The position numbers and the translations under genes were made by a program. A stretch of 64,000 nt of DNA from an uncultured Clostridia bacterium (GTDB lineage: Bacteria > Bacillota > Clostridia > Christensenellales > UBA1242), in contig CALWKA010000001.1 in NCBI GenBank assembly GCA_944381155.1, positions 2,529-66,528 on the forward strand. The letters run 5' to 3'. Of the stretch, positions 5,641 through 51,875 are shown piece after piece. The number at the start of each line of letters is the position of its first letter. The stretch's first letter is position 1. Under the pieces are notes generated by a model. That model worked only from the letters and a program-made list of their open reading frames with translations, was not told the DNA's origin and ran no database searches.

Positions 5641-5762
5641 AACTCATCCAAGCCGATGAGTTTAGATATCTATTAAACACCATCGGTCAGCCTTTAGCAC
5701 CTTGCATAAGCAGGTTGCTGTGTGGTCAACGGGGCTGTCCCTCGCACACTCTTTATGGATAA
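5641..5762 (-). promoter_or_regulatory. SAM-I (S-box) riboswitch
   Basis: The minus strand reads ...AAAGAGTGTGCGAGGGACAGCCCCGTTGACCACACAGCAACCTGCTTATGCAAGGTGCTAAAGGCTGA.... The conserved S-box core elements GAGGGA, GCCC, AGCAACC and GGTGCTAA are present, and the element lies upstream of metK. Confidence 0.8.
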
Positions 5763-12268: not shown

Positions 12269-12705
12269 AAATACGCTAAAAATAAAATTTTAATTTGAAA
12301 TGACACATATCTGTCAATCATTTGAAACTAGTTTAAATTTTATAAGCATAATGACGCTTCATATTATTGTTTTATATTATTAGTTTCATCGGTTGCAATA
12401 GTGTCATTTTTTTAACTCGCGTTGAATTTATTTGTAAAATTAAAATAGACATATTTTTATTCATAAATTATAAACAATAATTCGTTTAATCTAATTAATT
12501 AATATTATTTATCTTTAAATAAATTTTTAAGTTTTCCACATTTCTTCAACATTTTTAGATAAAATAAAAATAAATTTTGTCGTGATTATATAAATTAATT
12601 GTTAGGTCCGTTTCATAAATATATCTAAATAATCATATAAAATATCTTACTGCTAAATCAAAAATTTTAAACAATGAAAATTTTGTTTGAAATAATTTTC
12701 TTTTT

Positions 12706-15525: not shown

Positions 15526-15600
15526 GCTCTCGTGGTGTAATGGATAGCACAATGGTCTTCGGAACCATTAGTTCGGGTTCGAATCCTGACGGGAGCGCCA
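15526..15600 (+). tRNA. tRNA-Arg (anticodon TCG)
   Basis: Acceptor GCTCTCG/CGGGAGC, anticodon stem ATGGT/ACCAT with loop CTTCGGA, T-arm GGTTCGAATCC, encoded CCA. Confidence 0.85.
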
Positions 15601-16433: not shown

Positions 16434-16480
16434 CTTCGGAACCATTAGTTCGGGTTCGAATCCTGACGGGAGCGCCATAA
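16434..16480 (+). repeat. 47-bp direct repeat, copy 2 (orphan tRNA-Arg 3' half)
   Basis: Identical to 15557-15603. It lacks the acceptor 5' strand and the D-arm. Confidence 0.95.
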
Positions 16481-24840: not shown

Positions 24841-26196
24841 TTAATATTTTAAAAGTTGAGATTTTATATCGTTTACTAGCGTTCTAATATGTGGATTGAT
24901 TTTCACTTGATTGCTGATTTTATCTCGCGCGTGCATTATGGTGGTATGATCCCTTCCGCCGAATATTGCACCGATCGCAGTGAGCGGGATGCTCAACATA
25001 TCGTTTATCAAATAGATACACAACTGTCTAGGTTCTACAATCTCTTTATTTTTTTTCTTTCCTATCAAATCTTCTTTTGACACTTTGAAGAAGTCACATA
25101 CTGTATTTAATATTTTTTCAGCATCTAGATTGGTCTTTTCTGTCTCTCCATAATCTTTAAGTGCTTCGTGCGCATCTTCCATACTCGCGTGCGACTTTCC
25201 TAACAAACTTGAATAAAATACAACTTTTGACAAAATTCCTTCCATCTCTCGAATGTTTGTACCTGTTTTTTGCGCTATGAAGTCAACCACATCTTCGTCT
25301 ACTAAATAACCTTCTTGACTACATTTCTTTTTGATAATTGCCACCTTAGTTTCATAATCTGGCTCTTGAATGTCTTGAATGAGTCCACTGCTGAATCTAC
25401 TGCGCAATCTCTCTTCTAGCGAACTCATTTCTTTTGGTGAACGATCGGACGCTATGATAATTTGTTTATTGTTTTGATACAGATCATTGAATGTATGGAA
25501 GAATTCTTCCTGAATTCCCATTTTATTGCTAATAAATTGAATATCATCAATCATCAGCACATCTACGCTACGATACTTATCTCTAAAATCGAGATTTGAT
25601 TTGTCCTTTCCACTACGAATTGAATCTACATAATCATTTGTAAACTTTTCACAAGTGACATATAATACATTCAAATCTGGCCTATGTTTGTTCAAATAAT
25701 TTCCTACAGCGTGGAGTAGGTGAGTTTTTCCTAATCCAACTCCACCGTATATGAACAGCGGATTAAACTTTTCACTAGGATGCTCGGCTACACTTTGCAT
25801 TGCTGCGCACACCACTTGATTTGATTTTCCTACCACAAAATTTTCAAATGTATACTTTTGATTGAATTTAGACTTGAAGTTGGACGAATCTTTTTCACTC
25901 ATCATTCGCTCTAACTCCTCATCCTGCTTGCGAATTGATTCTTCATACTCTTGAATGTCGGTTATTCGAACGAATGTATACGGCGTGAACTCTTGTCTAA
26001 CACATTTTGTGATTTTTTCATAAATCGCGGGCTGATTGACTTGATTTTTCGCCGTGACACTAGGTGCTTTTATAATTAATTCATCATTTGCGTATTGAAT
26101 TGGGGTTAAAGTATTGATCCATAAGTCGAATGTGACCGCCGTGACCTCGTTTTCCAACTTATTCAACACTTTTTTCCATTGATCAAGTAAAAACAT
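24841..26196 (-). CDS. dnaA: Chromosomal replication initiator protein DnaA
   Basis: 451 aa with AAA+ Walker A GGVGLGKTHLL and the domain IV motif GGRDHTTIMHA. AGGAG RBS upstream. Confidence 0.95.
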   Translation of the reverse strand: MFLLDQWKKVLNKLENEVTAVTFDLWINTLTPIQYANDELIIKAPSVTAKNQVNQPAIYEKITKCVRQEFTPYTFVRITDIQEYEESIRKQDEELERMMSEKDSSNFKSKFNQKYTFENFVVGKSNQVVCAAMQSVAEHPSEKFNPLFIYGGVGLGKTHLLHAVGNYLNKHRPDLNVLYVTCEKFTNDYVDSIRSGKDKSNLDFRDKYRSVDVLMIDDIQFISNKMGIQEEFFHTFNDLYQNNKQIIIASDRSPKEMSSLEERLRSRFSSGLIQDIQEPDYETKVAIIKKKCSQEGYLVDEDVVDFIAQKTGTNIREMEGILSKVVFYSSLLGKSHASMEDAHEALKDYGETEKTNLDAEKILNTVCDFFKVSKEDLIGKKKNKEIVEPRQLCIYLINDMLSIPLTAIGAIFGGRDHTTIMHARDKISNQVKINPHIRTLVNDIKSQLLKY

Positions 26197-26909: not shown

Positions 26910-28007
26910 ATGAAATTCAGATGTGACGGATTGGAGTTAAGCGAGGCAATTAGTACAGTATCAAAAGCTATCAGCTCAAAGACCACTTCTCAAATTCTTG
27001 AAGGAATTAAGATGGTGTGCGAGGATGACCTACTTGTTCTTACTGCAACTGACCTTGAAATGAGTGTTGAAAAAAAAATTCGAGCAGAAGTGGATTCACG
27101 CGGAGAGACGGTTGTGCCGGGTAGACTCTTCGGCGAATACATAAAAAAACTTACAAATGAACAGATTGAATGCGAATTGAATGAGAAAAATCAGTTGAAA
27201 ATTTCGTATACAGACAGCGAAGGATGCCTTCAATGTATGGATATTAGTGAATTTCCTGCAATTAAGGAAGTGAACAAGGATAATTTCTTTGAAATTACGA
27301 AAGAAAATTTCAAGTCTTTGATAAACAATGTGTTCTATGCGGTGGCGCAGGACGATAGTAGACCTATTTTGAAGGGTATTTTGATGGAAACCAATCAAAA
27401 TAATATTCGTGCTGTGGCTGTGGACGGATGTAGGCTCAGTATTTCAAACAAAAGTTTGGTTATGTCCACTAATGATTTCAAAATAATTGTGCCAGGCAGG
27501 AATTTGAACGAGATTGTAAAGATGATGAATGGGGAAGACAATGTCAAAGTTTATATCCATTCAAACAATATTATGGTGGATCTTGGGGATACGATTGTGA
27601 TCAATCGCTTGATTGATGGTCAATTTATTAATTATCGCCAGATTGTGCCAAAAGATTTTTCTACAATCGTCACAATAAATAAAGAGCAGTTGGAAGACGC
27701 CATTGATAGAGCGAGTGTGCTTTCGCGTATTGATAAAAATAATTTGGTTAAATTCGACATCAAAGAAAAGAATTTGATGCTTACTTCAAATAGCGAATTG
27801 GGCAACACGCGTGAAAATATTACGGTGGGAGTGAAGGGCAACGATCTCAATATTTCGTTCAATTCAAAATATTTTAGTGATTGTTTGCGTGTGATTGACA
27901 ATCCGTATGTGAAGATGAATTTTAATAGTCAGATTCAACCGTGCGTCATCACTCCGTCCGAAGGAGACGATTTCTTGTTCTTAATTTTGCCTGTAAAAGC
28001 AAGATAA
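26910..28007 (+). CDS. dnaN: DNA polymerase III beta sliding clamp
   Basis: 365 aa starting MKFRCDGLELSEAISTVSKAISSKTT. GGAGG RBS upstream. Confidence 0.95.
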   Translation: MKFRCDGLELSEAISTVSKAISSKTTSQILEGIKMVCEDDLLVLTATDLEMSVEKKIRAEVDSRGETVVPGRLFGEYIKKLTNEQIECELNEKNQLKISYTDSEGCLQCMDISEFPAIKEVNKDNFFEITKENFKSLINNVFYAVAQDDSRPILKGILMETNQNNIRAVAVDGCRLSISNKSLVMSTNDFKIIVPGRNLNEIVKMMNGEDNVKVYIHSNNIMVDLGDTIVINRLIDGQFINYRQIVPKDFSTIVTINKEQLEDAIDRASVLSRIDKNNLVKFDIKEKNLMLTSNSELGNTRENITVGVKGNDLNISFNSKYFSDCLRVIDNPYVKMNFNSQIQPCVITPSEGDDFLFLILPVKAR

Positions 28008-30047: not shown

Positions 30048-31202
30048 ATGAAAATGCTATTGAAAAGAAATTTATCAAAAATATTATTGTTTACTCTTAT
30101 TTTGATGGCTTCTATAACATTCGTTGCTTGTGGTGGAGATGAGTCAAAAGGAGAAGATAAAACTTATAATATCATTTTACCGCAAGACGAAAACATCACT
30201 ATCACGCTAGATAAAAACTCGGCAAAGGCGGGCGAACGCGTGAATTTTTCAGTCAGTTTGAATAATGCTGATTATTATATCACGGCAGTATTTGTAAATG
30301 ATAGCGAACTCACTGCAACTGATAATGTATACTCTTTTGTTATGGGAAATAAAGATGCAGTCATTAGTGTAGAAAGTGCGCAGTATCAAGAAGTTTTGCA
30401 GGATAATTTTATCAGATTCAATTCGATTTCGCCAGATCAAATCATAATGCAAGAAAGTTATCCAGGGGATAATTGGGGCGCATATTTGACTTATGATTTT
30501 ACTGAAACATTTGTGGAAAACACGGCAGACACTGTGAAAGTGTTGGAATCTACCAATCAAAATGTTATTCCTAACGATGCGTTGAGTCATAGTTATATCA
30601 CGCAGGACGGCAGTTATAAAAGTGGCGGAAACATCTATATTGATAGTTCGAAGATAAACGCGGGCAGTACATATATAATTTTGGAGATTAAAAATACTTT
30701 CAACACCAGCGCCGGATCTTCGCGTGTGATCAAAAAGGTTGAAGTTGTGACTGAACAAGATTTTGATTATTCCGATCTATATTACACCGTGTCACTAACG
30801 CTCGATTTGAGATCGGTTAGATCAGATAGTCCATATTTTTCAATAGAATTGTCAGATAGAGATTCGGCTAGATATTATGGATTTGACTATTCTAATTTAA
30901 CCTATACAATAGACGGCATTGAAAAGACATCCATCGTTACGGGTTCAACTTGCAGATTCCGTTTTTCAAAAGATGAATTGACCACCAATGAAGTTACAAT
31001 CAGTTTCAATTATTTCATTGGGCATAATTATTCAATTTCATTTTTAGGCTTTGCTGACGACGGATATAATATTGGACCGGGGTATGAATGGACGACATAT
31101 TCTATTGGCAATAATGTAAATTCGCAAGCGGGATATACCACTAGTGACGGACTATATTTTAATTTTGATGGTGCAAGTTTGGAATTGACCGTTTCAAAAT
31201 AA
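30048..31202 (+). CDS. Lipoprotein of unknown function
   Basis: Signal peptide ending in the lipobox FVAC-GG. GGGAG RBS upstream. Confidence 0.6.
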   Translation: MKMLLKRNLSKILLFTLILMASITFVACGGDESKGEDKTYNIILPQDENITITLDKNSAKAGERVNFSVSLNNADYYITAVFVNDSELTATDNVYSFVMGNKDAVISVESAQYQEVLQDNFIRFNSISPDQIIMQESYPGDNWGAYLTYDFTETFVENTADTVKVLESTNQNVIPNDALSHSYITQDGSYKSGGNIYIDSSKINAGSTYIILEIKNTFNTSAGSSRVIKKVEVVTEQDFDYSDLYYTVSLTLDLRSVRSDSPYFSIELSDRDSARYYGFDYSNLTYTIDGIEKTSIVTGSTCRFRFSKDELTTNEVTISFNYFIGHNYSISFLGFADDGYNIGPGYEWTTYSIGNNVNSQAGYTTSDGLYFNFDGASLELTVSK

Positions 31203-31218
31203 TTTTAATAATGTATTC

Positions 31219-31257
31219 AAAGCACAAAACTAAAATTTATTTAGTTTTGTGCTTTTT
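31219..31257 (+). terminator. Rho-independent terminator after the lipoprotein gene
   Basis: 14-bp stem AAAGCACAAAACTA / TAGTTTTGTGCTTT followed by a T-run. Confidence 0.85.
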
Positions 31258-31921
31258 GTGGCAATAAAAAATAAAATCATAATGTTAAATAAATTTATAA
31301 AAAATTAAATAAAAATAAAAAAAACAATTTTTTTCGAATAATTAATTTATATAAATATAAATTAAAAAAAATAATAAAAATATATTAAAAAATAAAAATA
31401 ATAAATTTTAAAAATTAATTAATAAACAAATTTTGTATGATTTTTTTATAATAAATTGGTCAATTAAAAATATGATTTTAATCTTATAAATTGCATTTTT
31501 ATGATTAAAGTAATAGAATAAAAAGGATATGAATTGTGGTTATGTTTTGTTGCAATAGTTTATGATTCAACAAAAATTTGCTATCATCAATTTAAAAATT
31601 ATTCTTGACATATCAATTCAATTAGAGTAGAATAATTTTGCAAGTAGAATAGATTGATTGTCTAGATTTGAAATTGATTATTTTGTTTATATTGTTGAGA
31701 TGAAAAAACACATAAAAAATAATTTATTCATTCATTTATCAAAATTTTGATATGGGCATAAAAGATATGACAATTGATATTAATTCTTCATTAATAAAAT
31801 GCGCTAGCGATTTTATTTAAAATAATATCTGTACCCGATTAAAAAATAAAATGGGGATTTTAAGACTAGCAAAAAATTGTAATCAAAATTATCAATCCAT
31901 ACACTTTTGAATAAATTATAT

Positions 31922-32008
31922 GCGGATATGGCGAAATTGGCAGACGCGCTAGATTCAGGTTCTAGTGAGAGCAATCTCATGCAGGTTCAAGTCCTGTTAT
32001 CCGCACCA
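31922..32008 (+). tRNA. tRNA-Leu (anticodon CAG)
   Basis: Acceptor GCGGATA/TATCCGC, anticodon loop TTCAGGT, long variable arm, T-arm GGTTCAAGTCC, encoded CCA. Confidence 0.9.
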
Positions 32009-32009
32009 G
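31940..32009 (+). repeat. 70-bp direct repeat, copy 1 (tRNA-Leu from the D-loop to CCA plus 1 nt)
   Basis: GCAGACGCGCTAGATTCAGG...TTATCCGCACCAG is identical at 32151-32220. Confidence 0.95.
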
Positions 32010-32028
32010 CATAAAGAAAACAGCGGAT

Positions 32029-32150
32029 GCCAATTTCGCTAATAGGGGACCCCGAAAATAGACGATGTTTTCGGGGAAAAGGAGCAAGCGAATAAAACTA
32101 AAACTTTTTGCATTCAAGCAAAAAGTGAAATAAAATGAAGCTTGCGACGC
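32029..32150 (+). other. Unclassified structured insertion module, copy A (about 122 nt)
   Basis: (1) The 5' 11 nt GCCAATTTCGC (32029-32039) are the exact reverse complement of tRNA-Leu positions 31931-31941. (2) GGGGACCCC lies at 32045-32053. (3) Hairpin 1 is CCCCGAAAA/TTTTCGGGG (32050-32076). (4) Hairpin 2 is CTTTTTGC/GCAAAAAG (32104-32125). (5) A TGAAGC motif lies near the 3' end. It is a paralog of 37798-37922. Confidence 0.7.
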
Positions 32151-32220
32151 GCAGACGCGCTAGATTCAGGTTCTAGTGAGAGCAATCTCATGCAGGTTCA
32201 AGTCCTGTTATCCGCACCAG
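32151..32220 (+). repeat. 70-bp direct repeat, copy 2 (orphan tRNA-Leu 3' portion)
   Basis: Identical to 31940-32009. It is followed by a terminator-like hairpin, AAACGAACCTT...AAGGTTTGTTT (32230-32276). Confidence 0.95.
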
Positions 32221-32338
32221 ACAAGAATAAAACGAACCTTATATAACCAGCAAGATTAATATTCAAGGTTTGTTTTATAATAAAATTAATTTTATTAATC
32301 ACCAAAAATAAGTTGTGGCAATTTTGAACGCTTTAAAT

Positions 32339-33391
32339 TTATAATGTGTTGTGATGGCAATAAGGGCAACCTGGTGCTAAATTTAAGTTATAATTTTTAA
32401 CAATCTTTTCTGATTTGGTCAAGACATTTTCAAGAAATTTTGTCGATGGTTTTGTTCCAATATTGTTGTACGGCACATATGGGGAAAGCACAGGCATAGC
32501 ACCACACTTGCAAATTTCTTCAACACCTTTCAAAGAAGATTGCAAACTTTCTAAGCCTATAATAATGCCAGACCTAACATTTTGCGTTCCAAAAACTTTG
32601 CTTGCAAGTTTTAAAAAGTAAAAATAATTTTCCCTGCCTATATTAAATTTTTCTCTACAATATTTTTCACATATTTTTTTATCATAAAGCTCCAAGTTAA
32701 TTGACAGCCCTCCAACACCAAAACTTTTCAAAAGTTTTAGATATTCAAGATATTGAGATGTGTCGGGGTAAGAATCAAAACCGCGTGGCGTCATCATAAC
32801 ATCAAAAGAATATTGTGGATATTTCTGGCAAAAAAATTTATATACCTCTGTTAAATATTTTAAATCACACTCTTTAGGACTTCCGCCTGTTATTAAAACA
32901 TGTGTGACACGATCATCTTTCAAATGCACCTGAAGACATTTATCTAAATCCTCAATGCTATTTTTTGTGTATTTAATGTTATTTAGTGTGCAAAATGCGC
33001 AATGATTGTTGCACCCTCCAATAGGCGAAATGCGTGTTCTATCAAAATGAGTGGCTGCAATTGGAGAGGAAAGCAATTTGCTTTCTTCCTTTGAAATTTT
33101 GTTTTTAATATAAGACCTTATTGGTTGCCAAACTTCAACTTTAACTTCTTCGTTATTGAATTTCAAAATCAAATTATTGTTAATTAAAGTTAATTTATAT
33201 ATAGACTCTTTATTTAAGTCGCTTGTCACATAAAAATTATTTCCCAGCACCAACATAATCCCAGTTGTTGTGACATAGTCATCATTATAAAATTTTTCCC
33301 CAAATCTTTTTTTTAAATAGTCAAGAGCATCTTTTTCAATATTAACACCATTAACCATAAGTTCAATTTTAAGTTTTTTCAATGAAATCAT
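32339..33391 (-). CDS. Radical SAM protein with an N-terminal extension of about 120 aa
   Basis: CX3CX2C motif GGCNNHCAFC (Cys127/131/134 by my count). C-terminal PGCPYCHH. Its start overlaps the upstream ATP-grasp stop codon (ATGA). Confidence 0.75.
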   Translation of the reverse strand: MISLKKLKIELMVNGVNIEKDALDYLKKRFGEKFYNDDYVTTTGIMLVLGNNFYVTSDLNKESIYKLTLINNNLILKFNNEEVKVEVWQPIRSYIKNKISKEESKLLSSPIAATHFDRTRISPIGGCNNHCAFCTLNNIKYTKNSIEDLDKCLQVHLKDDRVTHVLITGGSPKECDLKYLTEVYKFFCQKYPQYSFDVMMTPRGFDSYPDTSQYLEYLKLLKSFGVGGLSINLELYDKKICEKYCREKFNIGRENYFYFLKLASKVFGTQNVRSGIIIGLESLQSSLKGVEEICKCGAMPVLSPYVPYNNIGTKPSTKFLENVLTKSEKIVKNYNLNLAPGCPYCHHNTL

Positions 33392-37543: not shown

Positions 37544-37795
37544 ATGATAGAATTTAGATATGATACTCAACTTCTTATCGAAGGCAAGAATTTGGACGAA
37601 GATAAGATTCGAGACTATTTTTTGAAGAATTTTAAGGGAGATTGCTTAATTGCGGTGGGAGATAGCGAACTGATTAAAATTCATTTCCACACAAACGAAC
37701 CTTGGGATGTGTTGAAATACTGCGCAAGTTTAGGCGAAATTTGCGACATCGTCGTCGAAGATATGGACAGGCAATCTCGCGGACTGAAAGGCTAA
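37544..37795 (+). CDS. Small protein resembling an internal segment of DAK2-fusion protein YloV (possible gene remnant)
   Basis: 83 aa. GDCLIAVGDSELIKIHFHTNEPWDVLKYCASLGEICDIVVEDMDRQ parallels my recollection of the Bacillus YloV segment GDSLLVIADEDLAKVHIHAEEPG...IKIENMREQ. GGAG RBS upstream. Confidence 0.5.
   Translation: MIEFRYDTQLLIEGKNLDEDKIRDYFLKNFKGDCLIAVGDSELIKIHFHTNEPWDVLKYCASLGEICDIVVEDMDRQSRGLKG
37765..37794 (+). repeat. 30-bp direct repeat, copy 1 (3' end of the 37544 ORF)
   Basis: GGACAGGCAATCTCGCGGACTGAAAGGCTA is identical at 37923-37952. Confidence 0.95.
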
Positions 37796-37797
37796 AA

Positions 37798-37922: not shown

Positions 37923-37952
37923 GGACAGGCAATCTCGCGGACTGAAAGGCTA
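37923..37952 (+). repeat. 30-bp direct repeat, copy 2
   Basis: Identical to 37765-37794. The next base differs, giving TAG here versus TAA in copy 1. Confidence 0.95.
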
Positions 37953-38009
37953 GAAGAAAGTTTTAAACAAATAAAATAAAAAATAAGTTAAAATAAAGGA
38001 GAAAATTTT

Positions 38010-50630: not shown

Positions 50631-51875
50631 ATGAAAAATTTTAATCCGATTCGCGGGACATACGATTATTTGCCAAAAGAAGCACGATTGCGCGAATATG
50701 TGCGCGCCACTATTCTCAATTCGTATCAGGAAAATGGATACAACCTTATAGATACGCCCATTTTGGAAAGCCTTGATTTTTTGAATAGTAGTGAAGGCGG
50801 GGACAATTTGCGTTTGATGTTCAAAACCATTAAGCGCGGGGAGAAATTGGATCTATCAAAAGAAAATTTGACCGAATCAGACATTGCGGAAGAAGGGTTA
50901 AGATACGATTTGACCGTTCCGCTAGCGCGTATGTATTCAAACAATAGAGAGAAATTGCCCACTCCGTTTCGCACCATTCAAATCGGTTCGGCGTTTCGTG
51001 CAGAGCGTCCGCAAAAAGGAAGAAATCGTCAGTTTACTCAATGCGATATAGATGTGTTTGGCGATAGTTCGATCAATGCGGAATTGGAATTGATCAAGAC
51101 CTGTTTTGATACATTAGCGCGTTTGGGATTCGAAAATCTGACTTTGAAAATCAACGATAGAGAAATTTTGAATCAATTGGTAAGATTTTCAGGATTTAGT
51201 GATGGCGAGATCAACACAGTGTGCGTCACGCTAGACAAAATTGAAAAAATCTATATGACGGGCGTTATGATGGAACTGATTGAAAAGGGCTTTGATACCG
51301 AAAAGATAAACAAACTTGTGGATATAGTGAACGATATTGTGGAAAACGGTTTGCAAGCGAGTGGAAAATATGGGGTAAAAGTTGAAAATATATCAAGATT
51401 GAACTATTTGATTGATACGCTAAATCGTCTGACAGGCAATCGATATTCAATAAAATATGACATATCAATCGTGCGAGGTCAGGGCTATTACACGGGTACG
51501 GTGTACGAAATTTATACAGACGGCTTTTCAGGTGCGATTGGCGGGGGCGGAAGATATGACAAAATGGTGGAAAAATTTTCAGGCATCAGTTGCCCAGCGG
51601 TGGGAATCTGTTTAGGATTTGAACCAATTTGTATGTTGCTAAAGGATAGGCAATCTAGCCTAGATATAAGGAAAAATTTGGTACTGCTATACGATAGCGA
51701 CGACGATATTATAGAAGTGTTTAATCTAAAAGACGAATTGAAAAAAGAATACAATGTCGCACTATATTCGCGCCCAAAGAATATCAAAAATTTCTATTCA
51801 AAGATAGGCGAAGTGGCAGACTTGTTGACTAGCGTGAAAGAGCAGAAAGAAAATAAACCTTTCAAACAATTATGA
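50631..51875 (+). CDS. hisS: Histidyl-tRNA synthetase
   Basis: Class II motif 2 FRAERPQKGRNRQFTQCDIDVFG and the GGGGRYD motif. C-terminal anticodon-binding domain. Confidence 0.85.
   Translation: MKNFNPIRGTYDYLPKEARLREYVRATILNSYQENGYNLIDTPILESLDFLNSSEGGDNLRLMFKTIKRGEKLDLSKENLTESDIAEEGLRYDLTVPLARMYSNNREKLPTPFRTIQIGSAFRAERPQKGRNRQFTQCDIDVFGDSSINAELELIKTCFDTLARLGFENLTLKINDREILNQLVRFSGFSDGEINTVCVTLDKIEKIYMTGVMMELIEKGFDTEKINKLVDIVNDIVENGLQASGKYGVKVENISRLNYLIDTLNRLTGNRYSIKYDISIVRGQGYYTGTVYEIYTDGFSGAIGGGGRYDKMVEKFSGISCPAVGICLGFEPICMLLKDRQSSLDIRKNLVLLYDSDDDIIEVFNLKDELKKEYNVALYSRPKNIKNFYSKIGEVADLLTSVKEQKENKPFKQL

Follow-up and report, generated by a model that had tools for sequence, protein, structure and literature searches.

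A strain-specific 211-bp unit behind tRNA-Leu(CAG) in an uncultured gut Clostridia bacterium: probably an insertion scar rather than a regulatory device

Why should most of a tRNA gene be repeated without a mismatch a short distance behind the intact gene, and what is the structured DNA that lies between the two copies? The 64,000-nt stretch of DNA analyzed here (the window) has ~31% GC and is chromosomal, located near replication origin genes (dnaA, 24841-26196 on the minus strand, and dnaN, 26910-28007, both from Pfam matches on identical contigs). In it, a tRNA-Leu(CAG) gene is followed by a 211-bp unit in which a 141-nt insert precedes 70 nt copied from the tRNA's 3' part; a radical-SAM gene (32339-33391, minus strand) neighbors the locus. 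Such a unit could be an RNA module that acts together with, or upon, the tRNA, or it could be what remains of DNA integrated into the gene. The comparison of strains favors the latter. With a probability of roughly 0.6, the unit is a recent strain-specific insertion, an att-type, gene-less and CIME-like remnant at a tRNA integration hot spot.

The gene, its truncated copy and the insert

The intact tRNA-Leu(CAG), with an encoded CCA, occupies 31922-32008 on the plus strand and is the promoter-proximal copy. It is recognized by ARAGORN and by the Rfam tRNA model, with a score of 54.7 bits against a threshold of 29 bits. A repeat search shows that tRNA nt 19-87 plus one further base (31940-32009) recur on the same strand at 32151-32220, 100% identical over 70 nt and at a spacing of 211 nt. 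These two blocks are the attL-like and attR-like copies, respectively, of the scheme discussed below. Taken alone, the second block scores just 17.8 bits with the Rfam model and is thus a truncated tRNA copy; ARAGORN calls only one tRNA-Leu at the locus, and a complete second 5' half, as a tandem tRNA pair would have, is not present.

Downstream of the second copy, in the space that separates the locus from the convergent radical-SAM gene, there is an A/U-rich hairpin (about 32227-32278, assigned to neither strand) with a predicted 14-bp stem, a 24-nt loop and a U-rich tail. It is native to the locus, 98-100% conserved in all strain types, and likely acts as a weak bidirectional terminator. 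The long loop explains why a scan for consensus terminators misses it. No similar hairpin with a U-tract was predicted directly after the first copy, and the terminator scan found nothing on the plus strand between the tRNA and the unit.

Among promoter-like sites around the gene, the highest score (11/12) belongs to TTGACA-17-TAGAAT at 31605-31633, ~290 nt upstream, which implies a long 5' leader for tRNA-Leu. This site is conserved in one of the strains that lack the unit (L142), and a similar one occurs within the unrelated upstream DNA of another (L138).

The insert itself (32010-32150, plus strand) contains no ORF and is strongly structured, with a minimum free energy of -44.9 kcal/mol (z = -6.9). 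Close to its start lies GCGGAT (32023-32028), identical to tRNA nt 1-6, with GCCAATTTCGC directly after it. The segment TGCCAATTTCGC (32028-32039) is a perfect 12-nt inverted match to GCGAAATTGGCA in the D-arm (31931-31942), and over a longer span (32023-32039 on the plus strand, against 31931-31947) the inverted match amounts to 15/17 nt. When the sequence was shuffled 3000 times with dinucleotides preserved, an exact match of at least 12 nt between the insert and either strand of the tRNA arose only once; the inverted D-arm copy is not due to chance. GCGGAT is weak evidence by itself, since it was found in 5.6% of shuffles.

Behind this segment, the predicted folds contain two hairpins, both on the plus strand. 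The first, at 32050-32076, has an 11-bp stem (CCCCGAAAAUA / UGUUUUCGGGG) and no U-tract behind it. The second, at 32084-32145, has an outer stem (GCAAGC/GCUUGC) around a 9-bp stem at 32103-32126, and this inner stem is terminator-like when read on the minus strand (32126-32103 in the terminator scan). In alignments of the rest of the insert with the tRNA and with the native upstream and downstream flanks, similarity was no better than chance. A 12-nt match between insert and flank, GAATAAAAC, was picked up by the repeat search and was discarded when it proved to be at chance level on the alignment test.

All that a preliminary description of this DNA had reported of the sequence is therefore seen again: the intact gene, the perfect 70-nt recurrence, the six initial tRNA bases within the insert, and the terminator-like hairpin behind the second copy only, which is present in the fold though not called by the scan. 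The reverse complement of the D-arm, given there as 11 nt, is in fact perfect over 12. The same description had also placed a promoter-like pair (TTGCAT-17-TAAAAT) inside the insert. That pair does exist (32107-32136); its score is 9/12, and the region as a whole has 14 promoter-like sites compared to 9.2 ± 2.8 in shuffles, which is not an enrichment. A promoter inside the insert is at chance level.

The same locus in other strains

A dozen contigs of the same species, all from human-gut-type metagenomes, were reached via the radical-SAM protein and the cluster to which it belongs at 90% identity. All of them have in common, at 98-100% identity, the first 120 bp beyond the tRNA locus on its downstream side. 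The locus itself occurs in three configurations. In type A the tRNA is followed by the unit, as in the window, where there is one. A second assembly (L002) has two perfect units in the order tRNA, insert, 70 nt, insert, 70 nt, terminator, although the assemblies compared were built from short reads, and the difference in copy number may in part reflect an estimate made during assembly. At least one unit is found in a third (L001), where a scaffold gap of 100 N falls exactly within the repeat. Type B is an empty site. In four contigs (L138, L139, L141 and L142) a tRNA-Leu identical to 31922-32008 runs straight into the same downstream sequence and terminator, and the insert is missing. It is this downstream DNA that adjoins the second, truncated copy in the window, and that copy may be read as the displaced original 3' part of the tRNA-Leu gene.

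In type C (L134-L137 and L140), unrelated DNA is joined to the locus at CGCACCAG, the extreme 3' end of the tRNA, the junction reading TTTATCACTTGT followed by CGCACCAG. The DNA at this junction was not found in the 64-kb window. The type C contigs also differ from one another. For example, L134 (5173-7048 in locus coordinates) and L136 (3045-3609) carry different cargo and share only a ~60-nt arm next to the junction, ~81% identical. The tRNA-Leu locus is thus a hot spot that has been rearranged in several ways within one species.

The sequence beyond the locus gives an indication of age. Identity to the window, measured across the 3 kb that follow the locus, is 100% for type A contigs, 99.8-99.9% for type C and 97.6-97.9% for type B. 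Since the contigs with the insert are identical throughout this stretch and the more distant type B contigs are empty, the unit is young and confined to one clonal lineage. The relatives carry a single gene, so that the unit is an insertion and not a second gene behind a decayed spacer. A simple tandem tRNA-Leu pair in relatives, the outcome that the preliminary description had named as speaking against its reading, was not found; the empty-site strains have one gene. More distant relatives, with ~60% amino-acid identity in the neighboring radical-SAM protein, have no tRNA-Leu at that position, and the comparison yielded no orthologous site beyond the species.

One of the empty-site contigs, L138, has a feature of its own. 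At ~5449-5405 (minus strand of the locus), ~190 nt upstream of tRNA-Leu, the segment GTGGATATGGCGAGATTTTAGACGCACACG matches tRNA nt 1-31 at ~23/31 positions. After it comes AATTCGCCAT, in which the ATGGCGA of that segment recurs in inverted form. With an alignment score of 26, the resemblance is borderline (null 19.7 ± 2.2, maximum 29). If real, this would be a second case of a tRNA-derived piece beside an inverted copy of part of the D-arm.

Short-read metagenome assembly can create false repeats, and several observations at this locus could be taken in that way. One scaffold has its N-gap inside the repeat, the copy number differs among otherwise identical assemblies, and Logan contigs break at the locus: L003 ends within the 70-nt repeat, and L144, from the same sample, stops ~745 bp past the lipoprotein gene, which by the spacing in the window would be about the position of the tRNA. 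A real repeat, however, is also expected to break contigs. The 141-nt insert is unique sequence with the repeat on both sides, it was recovered identically in three independent assemblies from differing samples and pipelines (the window, L001 and L002), and other strains assemble cleanly without it. That the duplication is an artefact is extremely improbable.

Integration, duplication and the search for a donor

The 70-base duplication and its absence from sister strains make the unit look like a remnant of integrated foreign DNA and not like a conserved regulatory device. In the scheme proposed here, a DNA molecule bearing a copy of tRNA-Leu nt 19-87 would have recombined into the gene, either by site-specific or by Campbell-type integration. 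This event would rebuild a functional gene on the promoter side and push the original 3' part, together with the native terminator, to the far side of the new DNA. A later deletion would have reduced the integrated DNA to the gene-less 141 bp now found between the repeats. The orientation suits such an integration, with the intact gene promoter-side and the truncated copy beside the native terminator. Repeats of the tRNA 3' part are found at both ends and the intact gene at one of them, and the empty site has matching boundaries. The direction of change, a gain of the unit and not its loss, would follow from parsimony.

The position of the repeat boundary needs no special mechanism. An unusual crossover in the D-loop was considered and dropped; the identity block starts 14 nt ahead of the anticodon loop and fits a crossover in that loop with matched core sites equally well, as at the tRNA-Arg locus described below. 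Once two perfect 70-bp repeats are in place, unequal homologous recombination between them could change the copy number. Strains with two units are best understood in this way, and loss of the unit could arise likewise. That the second unit of L002 copies the first exactly argues for such unequal crossing-over and against the accretion of a second element.

Integrated elements of this kind have been described. ICEs and IMEs can decay to att-flanked remnants and accumulate in tandem by accretion at the 3' ends of tRNA genes, and a remnant that has kept its att sites and lost its mobility genes is termed a CIME (PMC5704250); tandem structures at tRNA-like 3' ends are also known from ssrA islands (PMC3146451). 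The present locus resembles att-flanked tRNA islands, prophages and CIMEs in several respects. An intact tRNA marks one end, and at the other, next to native downstream DNA, its 3' part recurs without a mismatch; related strains have an empty site, and in sister strains other inserts occupy this tRNA as well. As in CIMEs and accreted elements, no mobility genes are left and the unit is multiplied in tandem at the same site (PMC5704250, PMC3146451). It differs from described CIMEs in that only 141 bp lie between the repeats, which is far smaller, and from att elements in general in that neither an integrase nor a donor was identified. Pfam matches include no integrase or recombinase in or near the unit, within the surrounding 17 kb, so that only the remnant class is possible and not an island.

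A donor element was sought in phages, plasmids and IMG/VR, where coverage of this uncultured lineage is sparse, and none was found. BLAST of the insert against phages and plasmids gave only 35-nt low-complexity matches in Listeria. Exact scans of IMG/VR with three segments of the insert, with the 3' part of the tRNA and with the arm from the sister strains gave 0 matches, and the insert has no significant match in the window or in the strain loci. A search of a genome collection with a pattern from the tRNA, conserved across Clostridia and Verrucomicrobiota, yielded at least 120 loci; among the matches listed, none had the insert and this species was absent.

Other partial copies of tRNA-Leu came to light in these searches. 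In the genome collection, L092 (4540-5822) has three copies of a related tRNA-Leu 3' region in 1.3 kb, and in L109, L120 and L026 short stretches of tRNA-Leu occur a second time close to the gene; partial duplications of tRNA-Leu thus seem to be common across Clostridia MAGs. In a metagenome collection, the architecture "T-arm, ~142 nt, D-loop to anticodon" gave three matches, all in high-GC, unrelated loci. In these contigs (L131 at 12440-12500, and also L132 and L133), a tRNA-Leu(TAG) is followed ~130 nt further on by the 5' half of a tRNA-Leu(CAG). That half ends just past the anticodon, where GATTCAGG gives way to TAAAGATTCC; the break is due to an intron or to an insertion into the anticodon loop.

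For the unit in the window, a group I intron in the tRNA was rejected. The insert replaces nucleotides of the D-arm and not of the anticodon loop, it measures 122-141 nt, and no Rfam intron family matches it. Neither a permissive Rfam search of 31000-33000 (E ≤ 10) nor a search of the whole window at the gathering threshold found an rtT, tmRNA, T-box, intron or ribozyme. The sole non-tRNA Rfam family in the window is a SAM riboswitch (RF00162, 51.6 bits) at 5667-5761 on the minus strand.

The window holds a second scar of the same design. The 3' 47 nt of tRNA-Arg(TCG) (15526-15600) recur perfectly at 16434-16480, 877 nt downstream; the repeat starts in the anticodon loop and comprises the last 44 nt and three bases past the CCA. 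Between the copies are 830 bp that contain a His_Phos_1 pseudogene (Pfam E = 7e-18) with an in-frame stop at codon 10, and no recombinase or integrase was found in them. This is the textbook signature of a decayed tRNA-integrated element. Two of the four tRNA genes in the window have a 3' duplication of this type.

Repeats of other kinds are also present in the window. A motif with the palindrome AATGTTCCACGTGGAACA at its end occurs three times within 1746-2501 (at 1746, 2223 and 2462), and these copies may be operator sites. A 33-nt G+C-rich segment, GGACAGGCAATCTCGCGGACTGAAAGGCTA, is found at 37765-37797 and again at 37923-37955, 158 nt apart and with 97% identity; both lie in short overlapping ORFs, and there is a weaker third copy at 51644.

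One feature of the tRNA-Leu unit is not explained by integration. An att arm is not expected to hold tRNA sequence from beyond the identity block in inverted form, and the inverted D-arm copy therefore counts against the scar. It is better explained if the whole tRNA-Leu gene was first duplicated in tandem and the second copy was then rearranged, with part of its D-arm inverted and ~110 nt inserted, possibly by template switching. GCGGAT would then be a relic of the 5' end, and both this hexamer (tRNA nt 1-6) and the adjacent inverted D-arm would derive directly from the second gene copy. Template-switch rearrangements typically leave short patches that are templated and inverted. On the other hand, duplication requires at least two events and insertion one. 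The 13 nt ahead of GCGGAT are unlike the native upstream flank, and the remaining insert matches nothing nearby. An alternative reading of GCGGAT, which by itself turned up in 5.6% of shuffles, takes it as the terminal part of the inverted D-arm copy, altered at two positions (the 15/17 match). The plain tandem pair that would be the intermediate occurs in no strain examined. Nor does the truncated copy look like the pseudogenes that arise from tandem duplication. It shares with them its place downstream of the parent gene; it differs in being 100% identical over 70 nt with an abrupt stop in the D-loop, in having unrelated structured DNA in place of the missing 5' part, and in that conspecific strains have one gene and not two. 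Origin by duplication of the gene is considered unlikely, and an insertion scar remains the preferred explanation.

Predicted folds, the tyrT precedent and what the unit may mean

The unit folds in a manner that invites a functional reading. The insert and the truncated copy together are predicted to form a tRNA-like cloverleaf of -73.3 kcal/mol (z = -6.6), in which GCGGAUG and the 3' strand make a 7-bp acceptor-like stem with pair probabilities of 0.77-0.99. When a read-through transcript is folded in silico, the D-arm of the first tRNA is taken up by the anti-D segment with a pairing probability of ~1, and the global fold (-132 kcal/mol) is 16 kcal/mol better than that of the modules folded separately (-115.6 kcal/mol). 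The preliminary description had proposed that the anti-D segment could compete with the tRNA fold, which in-silico co-folding bears out, and that the second copy is a tRNA-Leu in which 12 nt of the D-arm have been replaced by a 122-nt insert, with which the predicted cloverleaf-like fold agrees.

The unit could accordingly be imagined as a functional RNA module co-transcribed with the tRNA, in two versions. In one, tRNA-processing enzymes would release an RNA that resembles a tRNA, its acceptor stem re-created and its D-arm exchanged for a 122-nt expansion, much as rtT is released from the E. coli tyrT transcript. In the other, the anti-D-arm would act in cis and trap part of the pre-tRNA-Leu(CAG) in a non-tRNA fold, so that the output of tRNA is lowered; the codon read by tRNA-Leu(CAG) should be rare at ~31% GC. 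Several observations fit a module of this sort: the unit folds far better than shuffles and has a well-defined acceptor-like helix, the D-arm/anti-D pairing dominates the read-through fold, the inverted copy of the D-arm is beyond chance, and no plus-strand terminator separates the tRNA from the unit. The E. coli tyrT operon shows that trailer repeats with a tRNA 3' end can yield a stable RNA (rttR).

Against it, the unit is restricted to one clonal lineage and is absent from the four conspecific strains with an empty site (0/4), its copy number varies, and the promoter inside it is at chance. The searches made returned no homologue, so that covariation cannot be tested, and the only Rfam match is to tRNA. 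The G18-G19 loop residues are required for the tRNA elbow; the pseudo-D-arm is without them, and aminoacylation is therefore unlikely. Folding and processing of tRNA are moreover co-transcriptional, and the equilibrium fold may never form. A functional module of either version is thus distinctly unlikely. The more specific proposal is very unlikely: that the unit is a selected and possibly amplifiable module which would give a ~198-nt tRNA-Leu-like RNA. This RNA would have an acceptor stem, the anticodon arm, the variable and T arms and the CCA, its D-arm being replaced by a two-hairpin expansion of 122 nt; tRNA-processing enzymes would cut it out, and the anti-D-arm would modulate maturation of tRNA-Leu(CAG). 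If the unit is an insertion scar, its transcription would amount to no more than a passive 3' trailer on the tRNA.

In its architecture, the locus comes closest to the tyrT-tyrV trailer of E. coli, where the tRNA is followed, before the terminator, by same-strand tandem units that contain its 3' end. In E. coli K-12 (NC_000913.3) there are three 178-bp units at spacings of 178 and 178, the third one overlapping tyrV at its 3' end, and rttR, encoding the 171-nt RNA RttR, is annotated there. Tandem units are likewise found at tRNA-Leu (one in the window and two in L002), and by analogy with the tyrT trailer the unit is presumably co-transcribed with the tRNA. There are also clear differences. 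The tRNA-Leu unit has no sequence or Rfam similarity to rtT (no rtT match at E ≤ 10 in 31000-33000), it is known from sequence alone, and it occurs once or twice and is polymorphic within the species. Here 70 nt of the tRNA, from the D-loop to the CCA, are repeated; in tyrT the repeated part is reportedly ~19 nt. The tyrT-tyrV locus and rttR have been summarized recently (bioRxiv 10.1101/2024.07.17.603846).

Overall, the observations that drew attention to this locus are confirmed and the pairings are real in silico. The interpretation first put forward is in that sense partly supported. Its functional side finds no support, and the evidence points to an insertion scar and not to a regulatory device. 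If the unit were a selected module, it would represent a second, independent case of the rtT principle, with dosage shifted by unequal crossing-over, and a new tRNA-derived RNA with a built-in antisense to its parent tRNA.

As a scar, the unit carries a caution for annotation, in that strains need to be compared before truncated tRNA copies and their neighbors are called regulation. It also shows, cleanly and on a small scale, how a tandem array behind a tRNA gene can be seeded by perfect att-type repeats, and by analogy the rtT-like repeats of E. coli tyrT likely arose by seeding of the same kind. For the organism itself, an uncultured low-GC gut Firmicute, the scar marks tRNA-Leu(CAG) as a recombination hot spot, and tRNA-Arg(TCG), in the same window, likewise.
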